Shown in pieces: positions 2,921 through 9,827 of a stretch of 64,000 bases of DNA; position 1 is the stretch's first letter, and every line of letters starts with the position of its first letter. The notes below the pieces were generated by a model that searched no databases, had not been told where the DNA came from, and saw nothing but the letters and a program-made list of their open reading frames with translations. The translations under genes and the position numbers were made by a program. Source of the DNA: Porphyridium purpureum (taxonomy: Eukaryota); the NCBI GenBank assembly GCA_008690995.1, contig VRMN01000003.1, positions 62,001 through 126,000 of the forward strand, in the 5' to 3' direction.

Positions 2921-3092
2921 GGTCCCGACTGCACGCACCACGCACCATCTCCGCGCAAACGCCGAGGCCAGCCGCACGGTTGACTGAGTACAGCGATGTA
3001 CCCCTTTCGTGCGGATGGGTACAGTTTTCCGTGCGCCTCTCAAACGGGCAGGGGTACAGTTTGCAAATCTCTAGTAGAATCGACTGGATTTC

Positions 3093-3889
3093 CGTGGAAT
3101 TTTAGGGTTCCGCCCCGAGAGACGCCGTAGGGTTTTGAGTACAAAACCCTAGAAAGTTCTATGATGAAAGATTGTTCGAGAAGCGTGATGATCTCGGACC
3201 TGCGAAATGTTTGTCATTGTCGTTTTGTGTGGCCTTGTGCAAAGGTCAAAGGCCGGCCGAAGCTTCTGGATTCGTTCTTGACGCGCCCTCCCGGCCATTT
3301 TCCGGATACGTGGCCGGCTGTGGTTGCGAGTTGTGGAACGAATCAAAACCTGTGGTGGAAATTCGTCCTGTTGGAGAAATTTGTTCTCCCGTCCTTGCTG
3401 GAAAGAGCAAGGACGAAGGGTATAAAAGGACGAAGGGGCAAGCTGGTTCCCAGGAATTTCCAGGTCAAGGTAGAAGAAGAGGTAAGGGCAAATAGAATAA
3501 AAAGAGAATTGGTTAGTTGGATTGAGGCAGTCGTTGGAAGACTTGGGTTGGATTTGCGGGAGAGGCACGCTAGCGTGTTGTGCGAGCGGATATCGGTCTG
3601 GAGTGTTTTTAAAAAGGCAGCTGGGGTTTAAACGTACCTTCCATCACCCTTCACTTGTCAAGACCGGTCCACTCCCTCTCGTAGTCCCCTATAAGTTGAA
3701 TTTTCTGTCCTCTCTTCCTTTCTAGCCACTTTTCTCTGATTGTCCTGCTTGTCCTTCCGTTCGTTTCGGTGTGTCGGTTCGTCGTCGGTTTGTCAGTTTC
3801 CGGGGTGTGGCGGTTTCCAGTTCCTGTTATCGGTGAAGCGGTCCGGTTTTGTTGATTCGGTTACAAAGCAGAAAGGGAGAAATTCCAAG
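3093..3889 (+). repeat. 5' LTR (CGTGGAATTT...AAATTCCAAG)
   Basis: Matches 8057-8853 at offset 4964; by eye I see one mismatch (T3150 vs C8114). Confidence 0.97.
3421..3427 (+). promoter_or_regulatory. Putative LTR TATA box TATAAAA (copy at 8385-8391); AATAAA at 3496-3501
   Basis: GGG-TATAAAA-GG in the middle of the LTR, the usual U3 position. Confidence 0.55.
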
Positions 3890-3907
3890 TGGTATCATCG
3901 CCCGGTT
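3890..3907 (+). other. Primer binding site complementary to the 3' end of initiator tRNA-Met
   Basis: TGGTATCATCGCCCGGTT directly abuts the 5' LTR. Its reverse complement AACCGGG-CGATGAT-A-CCA has the layout of a tRNA T-arm/acceptor 3' end and parallels the plant iMet PBS TGGTATCAGAGC. Confidence 0.85.
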
Positions 3908-3918
3908 GTTTGGAGAAA

Positions 3919-4866
3919 ATGGAAAGCCATGAAATGGAAATGAATGTCCCGCAGGAGAATGCGGCATGGATTGAGGCAGCTAATCAGCTGCATGCGCGCA
4001 TTGCGGGACAGGAGATGATGATGGCACAAGTGCAGGAAGCGAATCGTAACCTCCATGAAATGATGCATGTTTTGTTGCGCCAGCAGACCGTGGCGTCTGG
4101 GTCTGGTGACAACGATCGTGCCATGGCCGCGTTAATTGGGCGCAGTTTGAGAAAGTTTGATGGTCAGCGTGACAAGCTCGTTGTCAATGAATGGCTGATG
4201 CGAATGAAGAGCGACCTGGATATCTGCATGCCCGCAGATGCTTTGGACTCGCAGAAAGTGATTGTTGCAAGTCGCTTTTTCGAGAGGGACGCAGCGCTGC
4301 TTTGGGCAGCTCGTCCGGAGGAGCAGAGAAAGGGCCTTGCAGAGGCCGGATGGGATGCGTTCGCAAACTTCGTGCGCACAGCGTTTGAGCCGCCGCAGGC
4401 GCATTTGACAGCGCGCACCAATCTGTATCAGTTGAAGCAAGGGAAAATGACGGTCGCAGAATTTGAGCAGAATCTCAGGATGACAGCGTTATCAGTTGAA
4501 GATGTGACAGATGCAGAACTGAACACCATCTTCACGCTGGGCTTGAAGGAGAAACTGCGTATTGAGGTGGCCCGTCAGGACACAAGGACCTTGGAAGAAT
4601 CACTGAAAGTTGCGTTGGCAGCTGAGCAGGTTGCAAAGTTCGGAGGAGATATGAGTCAAGTGATCAAGAACTCGTCATCGACTCATAGCAGGGCGTTCTC
4701 GTCGCATTCTGGTAGCGCACCAATGGATTTGGGAGCCATGGACAAGCGGAAGTCTGGCAAGACCAAAGTGAAGTGTTACCATTGTGGAGAACGTGGACAC
4801 ATTAAGCCCAAATGCCCTAAATTGAAGGAGCGCTTGGCAGGTGGTCCGCCAGAGCCGGAAAACTAA
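3919..4866 (+). CDS. gag: Retrotransposon Gag (capsid-like domain plus CCHC zinc knuckle)
   Basis: KFDG...WL...A..W...W..F...F; LYQLKQGKMTVAEF; FTLGLKEKLR; APMDLG; CYHCGERGHIKPKC. Confidence 0.93.
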   Translation: MESHEMEMNVPQENAAWIEAANQLHARIAGQEMMMAQVQEANRNLHEMMHVLLRQQTVASGSGDNDRAMAALIGRSLRKFDGQRDKLVVNEWLMRMKSDLDICMPADALDSQKVIVASRFFERDAALLWAARPEEQRKGLAEAGWDAFANFVRTAFEPPQAHLTARTNLYQLKQGKMTVAEFEQNLRMTALSVEDVTDAELNTIFTLGLKEKLRIEVARQDTRTLEESLKVALAAEQVAKFGGDMSQVIKNSSSTHSRAFSSHSGSAPMDLGAMDKRKSGKTKVKCYHCGERGHIKPKCPKLKERLAGGPPEPEN

Positions 4867-4918
4867 GACCTCGAGAGCCAAGACAGGAGGAGATCTCGAG
4901 GGGAATGGAGCCTCCTGT
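4857..4918 (+). promoter_or_regulatory. -1 programmed ribosomal frameshift signal: slippery G_GAA_AAC plus H-type pseudoknot
   Basis: Heptamer at 4857-4863 just before the gag TAA; 5-nt spacer; stem 1 CCTCGAGA (4869-76)/TCTCGAGG (4894-4901); stem 2 ACAGGAGG (4883-90)/CCTCCTGT (4911-18). The -1 frame is open into pol. Confidence 0.8.
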
Positions 4919-7900
4919 AATGGGTGTTGTGGAAGGTGTTGCGCACGAGGGTGCGAGGTCAAGGCTCTTCTACAAACATGGGAAAGTGAGTGGTTCAAAA
5001 ATCGACTTCTTGATTGACAGTGGAGCGTCGCATAATTTCCTGGGGTCCCGATTCTTGGACGCAAGCGTAAAGTCCAGTTGCGATGAATGCATGGTCGAGC
5101 TTGCGGGAGGACAGAGAATGAAGGTGCACGGCCCCATTGTGCTTGCGGTGGACCTCGGTTTCTGGATAGGGAACGTCGAGTTTTATATCGGTCCCATTCG
5201 TATGGATGCCATCTTAGGGTGGAAATGGCTCAAGATGGTGAATCCTAAGATTGATTGGCAGAAGGGACTGATGGAAACGAGGCCCGAGGGGAAGGAAATA
5301 TGCACGTTGGAAAATGTTGAAGAAGTGGTTCCCGAGCTTGACGGGAAAAATCAGAGCGTGGCTGCTTCGGAACACGAGTTGACTCACATGCCTATGCAAA
5401 GAGACTGTGAGACGTGTGTCGTGGCGAAGATAAAGCGACGCCCGGCCCGAAGGCTGGAGAAAGATGTCAGTGCATTGTCATTCAATGATGAAGTCGGAAT
5501 TGACTTGGTGGAGCCTGGGCGAAATGTGAAGTCGGTAGATGGTTCAAAGTTTATTTTGACGCATATCGACAGAGCCACAGGATGGGTGACATTGGCGGGG
5601 CTACGTGCGAAAACCCACACGGCGGTTGCGGACGCTTGGAAAAGTGTGCAAGCCGGGAGAGGATGGCCGAAGGTTTTGCGAACGGATGATGGGAATGAGT
5701 TCAAGGGAGATGTGGGGAGACTGGTGCGTGAACACCTCATAAAGCACGAGGTGGGGATTCCGTACAGGCCAAACAGTCATGCTGAACAGGAGCGGTTTCA
5801 CCACACGCTGAATCAGGGAATCCGTGCGAATCTTGTGCAGGCCGGACTCGGGAAGCGTTGGTTCATGCACGCCGCGCAGCATTTTGCGTTCATGACGAAT
5901 AGACTTCACGTGGGCAGGAAGTCTGGAAAGACGCCGTTTGAATTACGACATGGTGAAAAATGGTCGCCGAGAAATCTTAGTTTGCCATTCGGGTGCAAGG
6001 TGGTCTACAAAGATGATCAGCCTGACAATAAGTATGCACCGCGAGGAAAAGTTGGCATTCTCGTCGGCGTTGGAGAGCATCCGATGGCAATTTTGGTGCT
6101 TCCTCGGGATGACTGGACGAGTGAGACCCCAAAAGTAATTCGCACTCAGGATTTTAAGGCATTTACCCATGAGTTCCCTTTAAAGGGAATTGAACGAGAG
6201 ATGGTGAGCCTGAGCCAGCAGGAAGAGTTGCCAGAAGTGGACGAACCATCCGCGGTTGAAGCGGTGCAGGACTTGGATCGTCGTATCGATGCTCTCAGAG
6301 CTAGAGAAGCGGAGCTTGAGAAAGAGATCGAGGCATTGAAAGTGAGAGTGGTTGACGAAGAACGGGCAGCAGGCACGGGTGGTCCAGTGACGATCCCACA
6401 GTTGAACTTAACGACTTTGCTGAAAACTGGAGCGGCGTTGGCGTCTGAGCAAGGACGAGCCGCGATGGAAAAAGAAGTCAAATCCATGCTGAAATTTGGG
6501 GTATGGGATGAGAGTCCCTTGACGCTGGAGGAGGCCCGGAGGCAACCTGGTGCTCGTTTCGTACGCACACATTTCATTTTCGGTCTGAAATTTGCTGAGA
6601 TGCCGGAAGAATTTCGCAAGGTGAAGTGCCGCTTGGTGGCCGGGGGAAACAGGATATGGGGGTCCGATGGAGCTGCGACGAATGACATTTTTGATTATGA
6701 GACGCCTGCTGGTTTGTCAGCTATCCGAATGATAATAGCTGTGGCTGCAATTCTGGGCCTTCAGATTGTTAGTTTCGACATCAGCTCGGCATACCTCCAT
6801 GCGGACCTGTCTGGGCCACCTACGTTTGCATATTTACCGCGTGAAATTTGTGATTCAAAAGACACAGTAGTCAGGCTGAGAAAGGCGCTGTATGGCTTGC
6901 CCAGGAGCGGCTCGGATTTCTCACAAGATGCTCGGAGGAGATTGCAAAAGTTCCAGTGGAAGCTCGTGCATGGTGAAAAGAATGTGTACGTCCGGAGAAA
7001 TGCTGCAAGTTCGTCAGTTGCGTTGTTGGCTCTGTACGTGGATGATGGTCTATTAGCCTGTCGAGAGGAGGAACGCCCAGGAATCATCGAAGAATTGAAA
7101 CAAGAGTTTCTCATAGAAAAAGCACCAGAACTATTGACGGAAGGAGGATCCTTGAGATTCCTGGGGACGAGCATTTCCCTCAAAAATGGGAGCGTGAGTT
7201 TGGCGAATCAAGAGTATCAAGATGTGGTCATTCGGGAATTTGAGCAGGATATTAGACGCGTATTGCGTGCCGTGAAGTCACCATCTGAGAAGCTAGATGG
7301 CGAGGAAGTTCTGAATTATCAAGTCATCTGGAAGACTTTGAAAGTAAGAGAACACGTCGGGAGGCTGATGTGGCTCGCCAGAACGGTTCGACCTGATATT
7401 GCGTATGCAGTCGGTATGATTGCCCGGTACGTTGACAAGTGGAATGTGGCAGCAGAAAGGCTGCTCGTACGAGTCGTGCAGTATTTGAAAACACCTCGGG
7501 AAGCATTGGAGTATCACGTGTTGGGGAATCTCAAGGAAGGCATCAGAATGGTGAACATTCTTGGATACACGGATGCTGACTTTGCTGGTTGTCCAGAGAG
7601 TCGTGTGTCGACTTCTGGAAGAGCAACGTACTTAGTTGCTGGAGATTACAAGTACCTAGTGGATTGGTCTTCAAGAAAGCAGCGTTTCGTGAGCTCGTCG
7701 ACTTCAGAGTCGGAGCTGGCCGCCCTAGAGGAAACTGTGCAACTCTCGTTGTTTCCTGCATTGTCTTTCTTGCGAAGTATACGTGACGGAGAGTTCTCGG
7801 TGATTTTGATGTGTGACAATCAAGCTGTGATGCGAGCAATAGAGATGGGGTACTCGCCAAAGTTGCATCATATGGCGATAACCCGAGCAACAGATTTGGC

Positions 7901-8069
7901 CTGGTTGCATCAGGTGTGCGAAAAGCAGAAACTTGTGAAACTGGCATTTGTGAAGACGGACGAAAATGTGGCGGACTTAATGACCAAGGCCTTATTTCCG
8001 GAGGGCCACATTAAGTGCTGGGAGAAGTTACGCGTCCCTCAGACCGGAAGGAGGAGCGTGGAATTTTAG
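4905..8069 (+). CDS. pol: Retrotransposon Pol: protease - integrase - reverse transcriptase - RNase H (copia order); frame open from the slip site at about 4857
   Basis: PR FLIDSGASHNF...ILGWKWL..VNPKIDW; IN HELTH..CETC, IDLVE, RTDDGNEF, QERFHHTL, PFGC...RGKVGILVG; RT KCRLVAGG, FDISSAYLHADL, LRKALYGL, LYVDD; RH YTDADFAG, STSESEL, CDNQA, ENVADLMTKAL. Confidence 0.96.
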   Translation: MEPPVMGVVEGVAHEGARSRLFYKHGKVSGSKIDFLIDSGASHNFLGSRFLDASVKSSCDECMVELAGGQRMKVHGPIVLAVDLGFWIGNVEFYIGPIRMDAILGWKWLKMVNPKIDWQKGLMETRPEGKEICTLENVEEVVPELDGKNQSVAASEHELTHMPMQRDCETCVVAKIKRRPARRLEKDVSALSFNDEVGIDLVEPGRNVKSVDGSKFILTHIDRATGWVTLAGLRAKTHTAVADAWKSVQAGRGWPKVLRTDDGNEFKGDVGRLVREHLIKHEVGIPYRPNSHAEQERFHHTLNQGIRANLVQAGLGKRWFMHAAQHFAFMTNRLHVGRKSGKTPFELRHGEKWSPRNLSLPFGCKVVYKDDQPDNKYAPRGKVGILVGVGEHPMAILVLPRDDWTSETPKVIRTQDFKAFTHEFPLKGIEREMVSLSQQEELPEVDEPSAVEAVQDLDRRIDALRAREAELEKEIEALKVRVVDEERAAGTGGPVTIPQLNLTTLLKTGAALASEQGRAAMEKEVKSMLKFGVWDESPLTLEEARRQPGARFVRTHFIFGLKFAEMPEEFRKVKCRLVAGGNRIWGSDGAATNDIFDYETPAGLSAIRMIIAVAAILGLQIVSFDISSAYLHADLSGPPTFAYLPREICDSKDTVVRLRKALYGLPRSGSDFSQDARRRLQKFQWKLVHGEKNVYVRRNAASSSVALLALYVDDGLLACREEERPGIIEELKQEFLIEKAPELLTEGGSLRFLGTSISLKNGSVSLANQEYQDVVIREFEQDIRRVLRAVKSPSEKLDGEEVLNYQVIWKTLKVREHVGRLMWLARTVRPDIAYAVGMIARYVDKWNVAAERLLVRVVQYLKTPREALEYHVLGNLKEGIRMVNILGYTDADFAGCPESRVSTSGRATYLVAGDYKYLVDWSSRKQRFVSSSTSESELAALEETVQLSLFPALSFLRSIRDGEFSVILMCDNQAVMRAIEMGYSPKLHHMAITRATDLAWLHQVCEKQKLVKLAFVKTDENVADLMTKALFPEGHIKCWEKLRVPQTGRRSVEF
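8046..8056 (+). other. Polypurine tract
   Basis: GGAAGGAGGAG directly abuts the 3' LTR start (C8057) and lies inside the pol coding frame. Confidence 0.85.
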
Positions 8070-8853
8070 GGTTCCGCCCCGAGAGACGCCGTAGGGTTTT
8101 GAGTACAAAACCCCAGAAAGTTCTATGATGAAAGATTGTTCGAGAAGCGTGATGATCTCGGACCTGCGAAATGTTTGTCATTGTCGTTTTGTGTGGCCTT
8201 GTGCAAAGGTCAAAGGCCGGCCGAAGCTTCTGGATTCGTTCTTGACGCGCCCTCCCGGCCATTTTCCGGATACGTGGCCGGCTGTGGTTGCGAGTTGTGG
8301 AACGAATCAAAACCTGTGGTGGAAATTCGTCCTGTTGGAGAAATTTGTTCTCCCGTCCTTGCTGGAAAGAGCAAGGACGAAGGGTATAAAAGGACGAAGG
8401 GGCAAGCTGGTTCCCAGGAATTTCCAGGTCAAGGTAGAAGAAGAGGTAAGGGCAAATAGAATAAAAAGAGAATTGGTTAGTTGGATTGAGGCAGTCGTTG
8501 GAAGACTTGGGTTGGATTTGCGGGAGAGGCACGCTAGCGTGTTGTGCGAGCGGATATCGGTCTGGAGTGTTTTTAAAAAGGCAGCTGGGGTTTAAACGTA
8601 CCTTCCATCACCCTTCACTTGTCAAGACCGGTCCACTCCCTCTCGTAGTCCCCTATAAGTTGAATTTTCTGTCCTCTCTTCCTTTCTAGCCACTTTTCTC
8701 TGATTGTCCTGCTTGTCCTTCCGTTCGTTTCGGTGTGTCGGTTCGTCGTCGGTTTGTCAGTTTCCGGGGTGTGGCGGTTTCCAGTTCCTGTTATCGGTGA
8801 AGCGGTCCGGTTTTGTTGATTCGGTTACAAAGCAGAAAGGGAGAAATTCCAAG
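8057..8853 (+). repeat. 3' LTR
   Basis: Near-identical copy of 3093-3889, followed by the TSD ATTTC. Confidence 0.97.
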
Positions 8854-9032
8854 ATTTCGTAGGAGGCGCGCGGGGTTTGCGGTTCCGTCATGGAATGAGA
8901 ATTTGGCGGGCGTGCTGAGCTCGAGCAGGCTAAAGAGAGCCACGAGACAACCCACGCCACTGCCGTTGATGCTTGCCGCGCGCGGAACAAGCTAGGAAAC
9001 AGACCGGCATGATCGCGGCCGGACATCGGAGA

Positions 9033-9827
9033 ATGGGATTTGTGGGCGCCTGCGGTCCGCGCATGGGCGCGCGCCATGGCACACGGAAGAACGCTCTGGA
9101 TCGCAGCCCGCCGTGGCGACTGATGTCTGCTGGCGGCTCTAGGACAAGGCGACCGGAATGGCAATCTCTGCGCATGCGCGCTAGGGACGGTGGCGTTGAT
9201 GAGAAGGAATTGGGCAAGATGAGCCTGGGGCTGGGAATTCTCACTCTCGCGGTCGATTTTGCGAACCGGCTTGGCGTGCTCAATTCTGTTGAAGGCGTAC
9301 AAAGCCGGAGCGATCTCGTCGGGGTGATATGCGGCGTCACCATGATTCTGTACGGCCTGGCAACTCGTGATGTGAATGTCAGGGCAGAGCAGCAAGTTGA
9401 GCTGGATGGCCAATTTGTTGACGAAAAAGGTGCGGACGTTGTCAGTGAAAGCGCTCTCCAAAAGCTGCGCGGCGCCGCGCGCTCTGTGTGCGATGCCACG
9501 ACGGTGCGAAGCGTGATTGTCCTGAAAGCGGGGCAGGTGCTGTATCGATATGGTGTCATGGGTCAGGCTGCCACAGTCGACACCGACGCAGAAATCATCA
9601 AGCAAGCGCTGAGTAAGCCATCGCGCACGTACTTTGCCCGCGTGGAGATCTTGCCCGCGAAAGAGCAGCTCAACTTTTTGCCAAACAATGTCCAGGCAGT
9701 TCTTTTCGAGCCCCTTCCAGAAAATGGGCTCCTTATCCTGGGCGCGAGCAAGGTCCGTCCATTTACCCCTGAAGACTTTGGATGGATTCGAGCCTTGTCA
9801 AACCTGATTGCATCTCTTGAGCTTTGA
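9033..9827 (+). CDS. CCB4: Cytochrome b6f heme ci assembly factor of the CCB2/CCB4 family (CCB4-like), plastid-targeted
   Basis: ANRL...QSRSDLVGV...ILYGL and FLPNNVQAVLFEPL..NGLLILG...RPFT.EDFGWI; start MGFVGA resembles a transit peptide. Confidence 0.8.
   Translation: MGFVGACGPRMGARHGTRKNALDRSPPWRLMSAGGSRTRRPEWQSLRMRARDGGVDEKELGKMSLGLGILTLAVDFANRLGVLNSVEGVQSRSDLVGVICGVTMILYGLATRDVNVRAEQQVELDGQFVDEKGADVVSESALQKLRGAARSVCDATTVRSVIVLKAGQVLYRYGVMGQAATVDTDAEIIKQALSKPSRTYFARVEILPAKEQLNFLPNNVQAVLFEPLPENGLLILGASKVRPFTPEDFGWIRALSNLIASLEL

Follow-up and report, generated by a model that had tools for sequence, protein, structure and literature searches.

The window, a stretch of 64,000 nt from a contig of the red alga Porphyridium purpureum, contains an intact LTR retrotransposon at positions 3093-8853, with its features on the forward strand. 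A 5-bp target-site duplication (TSD) flanks it, the left copy (3088..3092) being identical in all 5 letters to the right copy (8854..8858). The 5' LTR (797 bp, 3093..3889) carries a TATA-like box (3421-3427) and an AATAAA (3496-3501), and it differs from the 3' LTR (8057..8853) at 1 of 797 bases (position 3150). A primer-binding site, recognised from its sequence, abuts the 5' LTR directly (3890..3897); it is probably of the initiator-Met type, and no tRNA gene for comparison was found in the 64-kb window. A polypurine tract, also read from the sequence (8046..8056), lies immediately 5' of the 3' LTR. The neighbours of this copy are host genes; the one on its right, about 150 bases past the 3' end, is a CCB2/CCB4 cytochrome b6 assembly gene (8970-9827).

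The LTR termini are CG...AG (3093-3094, 3888-3889, 8057-8058 and 8852-8853), and a 7-bp inverted repeat with TG/CA begins two bases inside them. These termini are set by the TSD, and the flanks of other insertions also join at 3092-3093 and 8853-8857. Ty1-like integrases do not trim the two terminal bases, and we hypothesize that the CG...AG ends come from an integrase that leaves two terminal bases untrimmed on gypsy-style ends. A sister family, referred to below as family B, seems to start two bases ahead of its TGG as well, judging from a loose end at 8062 and the C-terminus of P0004. With its CG...AG ends, the family would escape LTR finders that depend on TG...CA.

The element encodes a 315-aa gag (3919..4866; ATG at 3919, stop at 4864-66), with a gypsy-type capsid and one CCHC knuckle, and a pol frame (4821..8069) that lies at -1 relative to gag and has the order protease, integrase, reverse transcriptase and RNase H (PR-IN-RT-RH). 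The pol frame passes through the polypurine tract and reaches its stop 10 bases into the 3' LTR (window 8057-8069). It contains in-frame ATGs at 4905 and 4920. The sequence-only reading of this DNA had described pol as open from the slippery heptamer at the end of gag; the -1 frame stands, but the opening point does not, as the last stop in the pol frame is at 4818 and the frame is already open from 4821, 12 codons upstream of the heptamer.

The proteins of the element match P. purpureum protein records at 99-100% identity, and further copies were examined through annotated proteins and sequence contigs. Of the 16 members of the pol cluster, 15 are listed, and 14 of these begin at Met4905, are identical over the first 47 residues and are annotated apart from gag. 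All four members of the gag cluster end in PEPEN. The element is a young, multi-copy LTR retrotransposon of P. purpureum. Because its LTRs are nearly identical, the listed pol proteins are separate with the same N-terminus in 14 of 15 cases and the gags share one end, the gag/pol split is the normal state of this family (family A).

At the gag-pol junction, the heptamer G_GAA_AAC (4857..4863) takes in the last two gag codons plus one base, and the gag stop follows directly. This gag end, as well as the position of pol in the -1 frame, had been noted previously and was confirmed from the sequence. A 5-nt spacer that includes the gag UAA (4864..4868) leads to the 5' arm of stem 1 (4869..4876), which pairs with its 3' arm at 4894..4901 (8/8 Watson-Crick, approximately -16.6 kcal/mol), and the 5' arm of stem 2 (4883..4890) pairs with 4911..4918 (8/8 Watson-Crick, approximately -17.0 kcal/mol). 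The description of two 8-bp stems in H-type order, 5 nt past the heptamer, was likewise borne out, with 16 of 16 pairs Watson-Crick and loops L1, L2 and L3 of 6, 3 and 9 nt. Each of the junction motifs occurs once within 3000-9000; the element has 13 heptamer-like words under a relaxed XXX set, four of them in gag, and only that at 4857 is in the gag frame. The P-site deviation from strict X_XXY_YYZ that had been remarked on is real, the XXX being a GGA variant in the upstream frame; G_GA is nonetheless listed as a natural P-site variant among -1 frameshift heptamers, and the 5-nt spacer falls within the 5-9 nt range of such signals (both in the available text of PMC5009743). A further hairpin is predicted downstream (4924..4979; -24.9 kcal/mol for 4919-5000), which is compatible with the knot and competes with a nested alternative to it.

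The pairing at the junction was evaluated with a custom H-type knot finder. When 4864-4933 was shuffled 5000 times with dinucleotides preserved, no shuffle yielded an H-type knot in which each stem had at least 7 bp, the best shuffles reaching 5 bp (125/5000) or 6 bp (3/5000). When 70-nt segments from both strands of the 64-kb window were searched, 3 of 12,786 reached at least 7 bp, all of which were this site or its reverse complement. No Rfam match was found at the cassette. The nested energy minimum for 4850-4940 is a hairpin in which stem 2 is extended (z -2.1), with -28.5 kcal/mol for 4869-4940. The pseudoknot energy, calculated with assumed loop penalties, is -22 to -27 kcal/mol, which is only level with the nested folds; with the free downstream hairpin added, the knot comes to -47 to -52 kcal/mol, compared with -47.3 kcal/mol for the best nested fold over 4869-5000, which itself contains stem 1. 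The pseudoknot-aware folding proposed as a check on the sequence-only reading was thus favorable for stem complementarity beyond chance, and it gave no energy edge over nested folds, the two being level under assumed penalties. The 3' structure is stable beyond chance, and an H-type topology is predicted for it.

Family B is 72% identical to family A in gag and 63-66% in pol. Its gag ends in GGPEN-stop, and its pol frame reads SRGTEPPGMG in 14 of 15 listed proteins. Between positions 4606 and 5369 the family B contig has 807 letters, compared with 762 in the window, in 4 of 4 runs, and amino-acid indels of 9 and 36 nt account for exactly this difference of 45 nt; in family B, therefore, gag and pol stand in the -1 relation seen in family A, and the stop lies equally far from the stems. 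Family B keeps the residues that fall on the two 3' arms (Ser-Arg for stem 1 and Pro-Pro for stem 2). Met4905 is replaced by Thr in all 14 proteins covering the position, and the ATG at 4920 is kept. Pairing in family B was inferred from protein only and covers stem 2 and the 3' arm of stem 1. Despite four residue changes across both arms, the family B residues permit 8 of 8 stem-2 pairs and force four of them (one G-U); random residue replacements permitted 8/8 in 9% of 100,000 trials. In stem 1, seven of the eight 3' bases are permitted and the innermost is excluded, since the residue at 4894 rules out the base found in the window, and stem 1 of family B is probably 7 bp long.

Other relatives add to the comparison. 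A diverged copy on a 190-nt contig (depth 2.4), which matches the annotated P0041/P0045, has no listed change in the heptamer or stem 1, two changes in loop 1 and one C-to-U change that retains a G-U pair. A 3-nt loss in its stem-2/L2 region leaves, by count, a stem 2 of 7 bp and a loop 2 of 1 nt. It differs at 3 of 59 positions in the cassette and 20 of 104 outside (p 0.018), on the assumption that 14 of the 23 differences, which are unplaced, lie near the contig ends. It also carries a C-G to U-A double change at 4879/4922. The Logan gag P0042 (61% identity) ends in PEQEN-stop. All three of the other gag families or copies in the alignment have EN-stop. This conservation is suggestive, not decisive, because the GGP just upstream is also kept. 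A gag-alignment scan of metagenome and viral contigs yielded no relative (0/121 and 0/86 pattern matches, respectively), and no pol partner for P0042 was present among 22 protease-search matches.

The domain content of the element was assigned by profile searches. Gag matches Retrotrans_gag (2.4e-9), Ty3_capsid (1.5e-8) and zf-CCHC in Pfam, and its best PDB profile is dArc1 (E 0.0022). AlphaFold models of Gag from four sequences were poor (mean pLDDT 51), and a fold search with them gave no match at E <=0.001 (dArc1 at rank 7, E 1.4). The protease (4980..5225) is of the gypsy/retrovirus type with a DSGA motif; its Pfam match to Asp_protease_2 (E 2.8e-4) is below the cut-off, its best PDB match is ASPRV1 (E 0.004), and it scores 74.8 bits with a gypsy-PR profile compared with 4.7 bits with a copia-PR profile. 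The integrase zinc knuckle read from the translation, H-x3-H-x6-C-x2-C (5373..5417), has a very short spacing; metagenome, MMETSP and Porphyridium proteins that form a clade away from canonical copia have it too. The reverse transcriptase (6561..7244) is of the copia type (RVT_2, 1.7e-18), and RNase H was recognised by motifs, with no Pfam match. Retrotran_gag_2/3 and Pol_BBD are absent from the element, whereas Retrotran_gag_2 and Pol_BBD are present in the canonical copia control P0006, where the match to the gag profile is confined to the knuckle. The element therefore has the Ty3-type capsid and retropepsin-type protease of Ty3/gypsy but not RVT_1 or the RT-RH-IN order; it has the PR-IN-RT-RH order and RVT_2 of Ty1/copia but not the copia gag and protease or the TG...CA termini.

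A HMMER search with pol recovered further P. purpureum families at 34-38% identity. An RT-RH tree of 491 columns was built from 61 of 151 proteins, chosen for a long RT-RH match from the first 50 and then from every fifth protein, and in this midpoint-rooted tree, which has no named references, the element falls in the short-knuckle clade, apart from the canonical copia proteins. A gypsy-type protease was detected in 5 of the 151 proteins, and the four of these in the tree form one subclade (support 0.94). Short-knuckle proteins outside that subclade have a different protease with an LLSLG-type motif and weak scores with both profiles; the protease type of most short-knuckle relatives was read by eye from the motif because the copia-protease profile gave <20 bits. 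A gypsy gag-protease module grafted onto a copia-order integrase-RT-RNase H is moderately supported by these sequence comparisons.

It had also been suggested that the frameshift independently supports a gypsy origin for the 5' half. The gypsy-type 5' half is upheld by the protein evidence, but its independent support from the frameshift is lost, because in two related hybrid families of this alga, P0070 and P0072, the annotation puts gypsy-type Gag and protease into a single ORF with pol: three gene models of P0070, all 1530 aa, have the knuckle running into the protease, and the P0072 model is likewise a single ORF. P0070, P0072 and P0078 are further gypsy-protease/copia-pol hybrids, with 2-5 bits in the protease against that of the window and >100 in IN, RT and RH where complete. 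These low protease scores may mean that a gypsy module was captured repeatedly or that the protease drifted faster. Some relatives have a Myb-like insert between integrase and RT, detected as Pfam Myb_DNA-binding in the related family P0073; a W-spaced stretch resembling it was seen by eye in P0003/P0004 and P0222, and P0072 is also named as a carrier. The family of the window has a coiled-coil at this place instead.

A -1 shift of some kind at the junction is highly probable, and the best reading of the sequence, which we consider probable, is that the shift is stimulated by the pseudoknot. The predicted H-type knot would fold on the mRNA and stall the ribosome while GAA AAC is occupied by Glu and Asn tRNAs, and the gag stop right behind the heptamer may add a pause. 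The tRNAs would re-pair on GGA AAA, with one G-U in the P site, so that a minority of ribosomes would move one base in the 5' direction immediately ahead of the gag stop and read through the transframe junction PEPE-N/K-LRPREPR. Most ribosomes would terminate at once, giving an excess of the 315-aa Gag beside a 1383-aa Gag-Pol; an excess of Gag is described as required for particle assembly (available text of PMC3735527). The frameshift cassette proposed from the sequence alone is thus supported by the anatomy, the null tests and the sister family, while the accompanying phrase "recoding in an algal nucleus" is overstated, as a -1 shift on retroelement RNA would take place in the cytoplasm in the ordinary way. 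A predicted pseudoknot at the Tca2 junction gave no recoding in reporters, according to the part of PMC7175516 available, which calls for caution. Stop-codon readthrough and +1 shifting were rejected because pol lies in the -1 frame and not in the gag frame.

Other explanations of the junction were weighed against pseudoknot-stimulated shifting. The -1 shift could be real and stimulated by the long nested hairpin, in which stem 2 is extended by pairing 4865-4880 with 4921-4940. This hairpin is the minimum fold given above, and the double change at 4879/4922 in the diverged copy is compensatory within its extension; family B residues, however, force G opposite G at the same positions, and the diverged copy breaks 4880/4921 and 4872/4929. 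The extension also competes with the downstream hairpin, the best fold of 4869-5000 uses stem 1, and a perfect 8-bp stem 1 would be left unexplained, so we regard a nested stimulator as unlikely. Pol could also be translated on its own, starting at ATG 4905 or 4920 after reinitiation or on a shorter transcript, with the structure serving packaging, dimerisation or a transcript end; we judge this distinctly improbable. Pol packaging normally depends on fusion to Gag, 38 nt separate the gag stop from the first ATG, and Met4905 is lost in family B; such expression would also leave unexplained why three families keep EN-stop, why the -1 frame is open and why the spacing is fixed at 5 nt. What speaks for it is that the two ATGs, which share the pol frame and precede the protease, have a purine at -3 or G at +4, that the one at 4920 persists in family B, that RNA contigs of one study end inside the knot, and that separate Pol expression is known in foamy virus and proposed for Tca2 (available text of PMC5014426). 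In the RNA runs X19 and X20, contigs break within the knot (4873 and 4900) and resume at 5018 or 4962, with a higher contig depth over gag, whereas DNA contigs are continuous. The breaks could be reverse-transcriptase stops or decay, and neither they nor the depth were taken as evidence, because they come from one study, the stop points differ and contig depth cannot rank.

Public gene models of family B assume a small intron whose excision would take out the gag stop and bring the two frames together, with 14 of the 15 listed joining gag to pol through an inferred splice, and splicing is used by copia elements (PMC5580714 and PMC3735527, each as available in part). Yet these models are divided 7 and 7 between two junctions, both of which delete the zinc knuckle, and they would excise approximately 113 or 83 nt, whereas the unspliced 807 letters are found in 4 of 4 runs including the RNA run X19. 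Family-A contigs in two runs guessed to be RNA cross the junction without a joint, and no splice across it was seen in the contigs, which drop rare forms and for which X19 and X20 are the only RNA on record. An intron is accordingly very improbable. The idea that an inactivating lesion broke the frame and that the stems arose by chance is largely refuted, and we give it hardly any credence: the annotation of the related hybrids P0070 and P0072 as one ORF would agree with a lesion, but the split is common to all young copies and to family B, and the shuffles gave no comparable knot.

With pseudoknot-stimulated -1 shifting as the preferred reading, we regard the cassette as a genuine, well-formed -1 frameshift signal of known type in an unusual host element. 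The available portions of reviews assign single ORFs, splicing, +1 shifting or a stop codon to copia-order elements and leave the -1 pseudoknot to retroviruses and gypsy. If confirmed, the cassette would break the rule of thumb that reserves -1 pseudoknot shifting for the latter, and it would mean that a gag-protease module can pass from one superfamily to another together with its recoding signal. It would offer a compact, natural, predicted pseudoknot cassette of the G_GA type in an alga with a small genome, and it would account for about 30 public gene models that are split or given false introns at the junction. Only tentatively, and as something possible rather than probable, we propose an undescribed lineage in which a gypsy gag-protease with its cis signals (the -1 pseudoknot and LTR ends two bases beyond TG/CA) was grafted onto a short-knuckle copia-order IN-RT-RNase H, with the ends inserted untrimmed and with families switching between single-ORF and frameshift expression; copia-type enzymes expressed through a pseudoknot-driven -1 shift would be a first.

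In comparison with Ty1/copia elements (Pseudoviridae), the element is alike in its PR-IN-RT-RH order, RVT_2 and 5-bp TSD, and unlike in its -1 frame with a predicted pseudoknot, gypsy-type gag and protease, short integrase knuckle and CG...AG ends. The shift of the 1731 element is in the +1 direction. For Ty1/copia elements generally, the available texts describe a single ORF or splicing (copia, BARE1, EVD), a +1 shift (Ty1) or a stop codon (Tca2), and for 1731 "frameshifting" (PMC5009743, PMC5443660). Neither a -1 pseudoknot in a copia-order element nor a gypsy-gag/copia-pol family in Porphyridium was described in the literature searched, which was available in part and mostly excluded subscription papers and Repbase; it also included PMC2774666, PMC6317226, PMC6875170 and PMC11889832. 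In the available text of PMC2806351, from whose description the diatom CoDi elements are known here, no recoding signal is described for them.

The GalEa-like CoPorcru1/2 of Porphyridium cruentum and PyRE10G of Porphyra are, like the present element, red-algal copia-order elements. A copia-like element of Porphyra is said, in a title, to have a gypsy-like integrase. GalEa elements are characterised, in the accessible parts of PMC5445492 and PMC3587641, by a DTG(C/A) protease, an HX4HX30CX2C knuckle, a conserved primer-binding site and TGT..CA ends; the element has DSGA, HX3HX6CX2C and another primer-binding site and ends, and so departs from the GalEa description. The CoPorcru sequences are EST accessions (PMC3587641, in part) and may or may not belong to the family of the element. 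Troyka resembles the element in an LTR that begins with 5'-CG, but Troyka ends in CG and has a 3-bp TSD and the gypsy domain order, whereas the element ends in AG and has a 5-bp TSD and the copia order (available text of PMC12440569).

The closest resemblance in the recoding signal is to PEG10/Edr, PNMA3 (Ma3) and retroviral gag-pol signals, with which the cassette shares an AAAC-ending heptamer, a short spacer, an H-type pseudoknot, here predicted, and a gypsy-type gag end (PMC5009743, as available); the family B gag carries the NCBI name "Retrotransposon-derived protein PEG10". Unlike PEG10 and PNMA3, the cassette has G_GA and not G_GG in the P site, a stop directly after the heptamer and no counterpart in Rfam, and the pol that it serves has the copia order and belongs to an active element of an alga.
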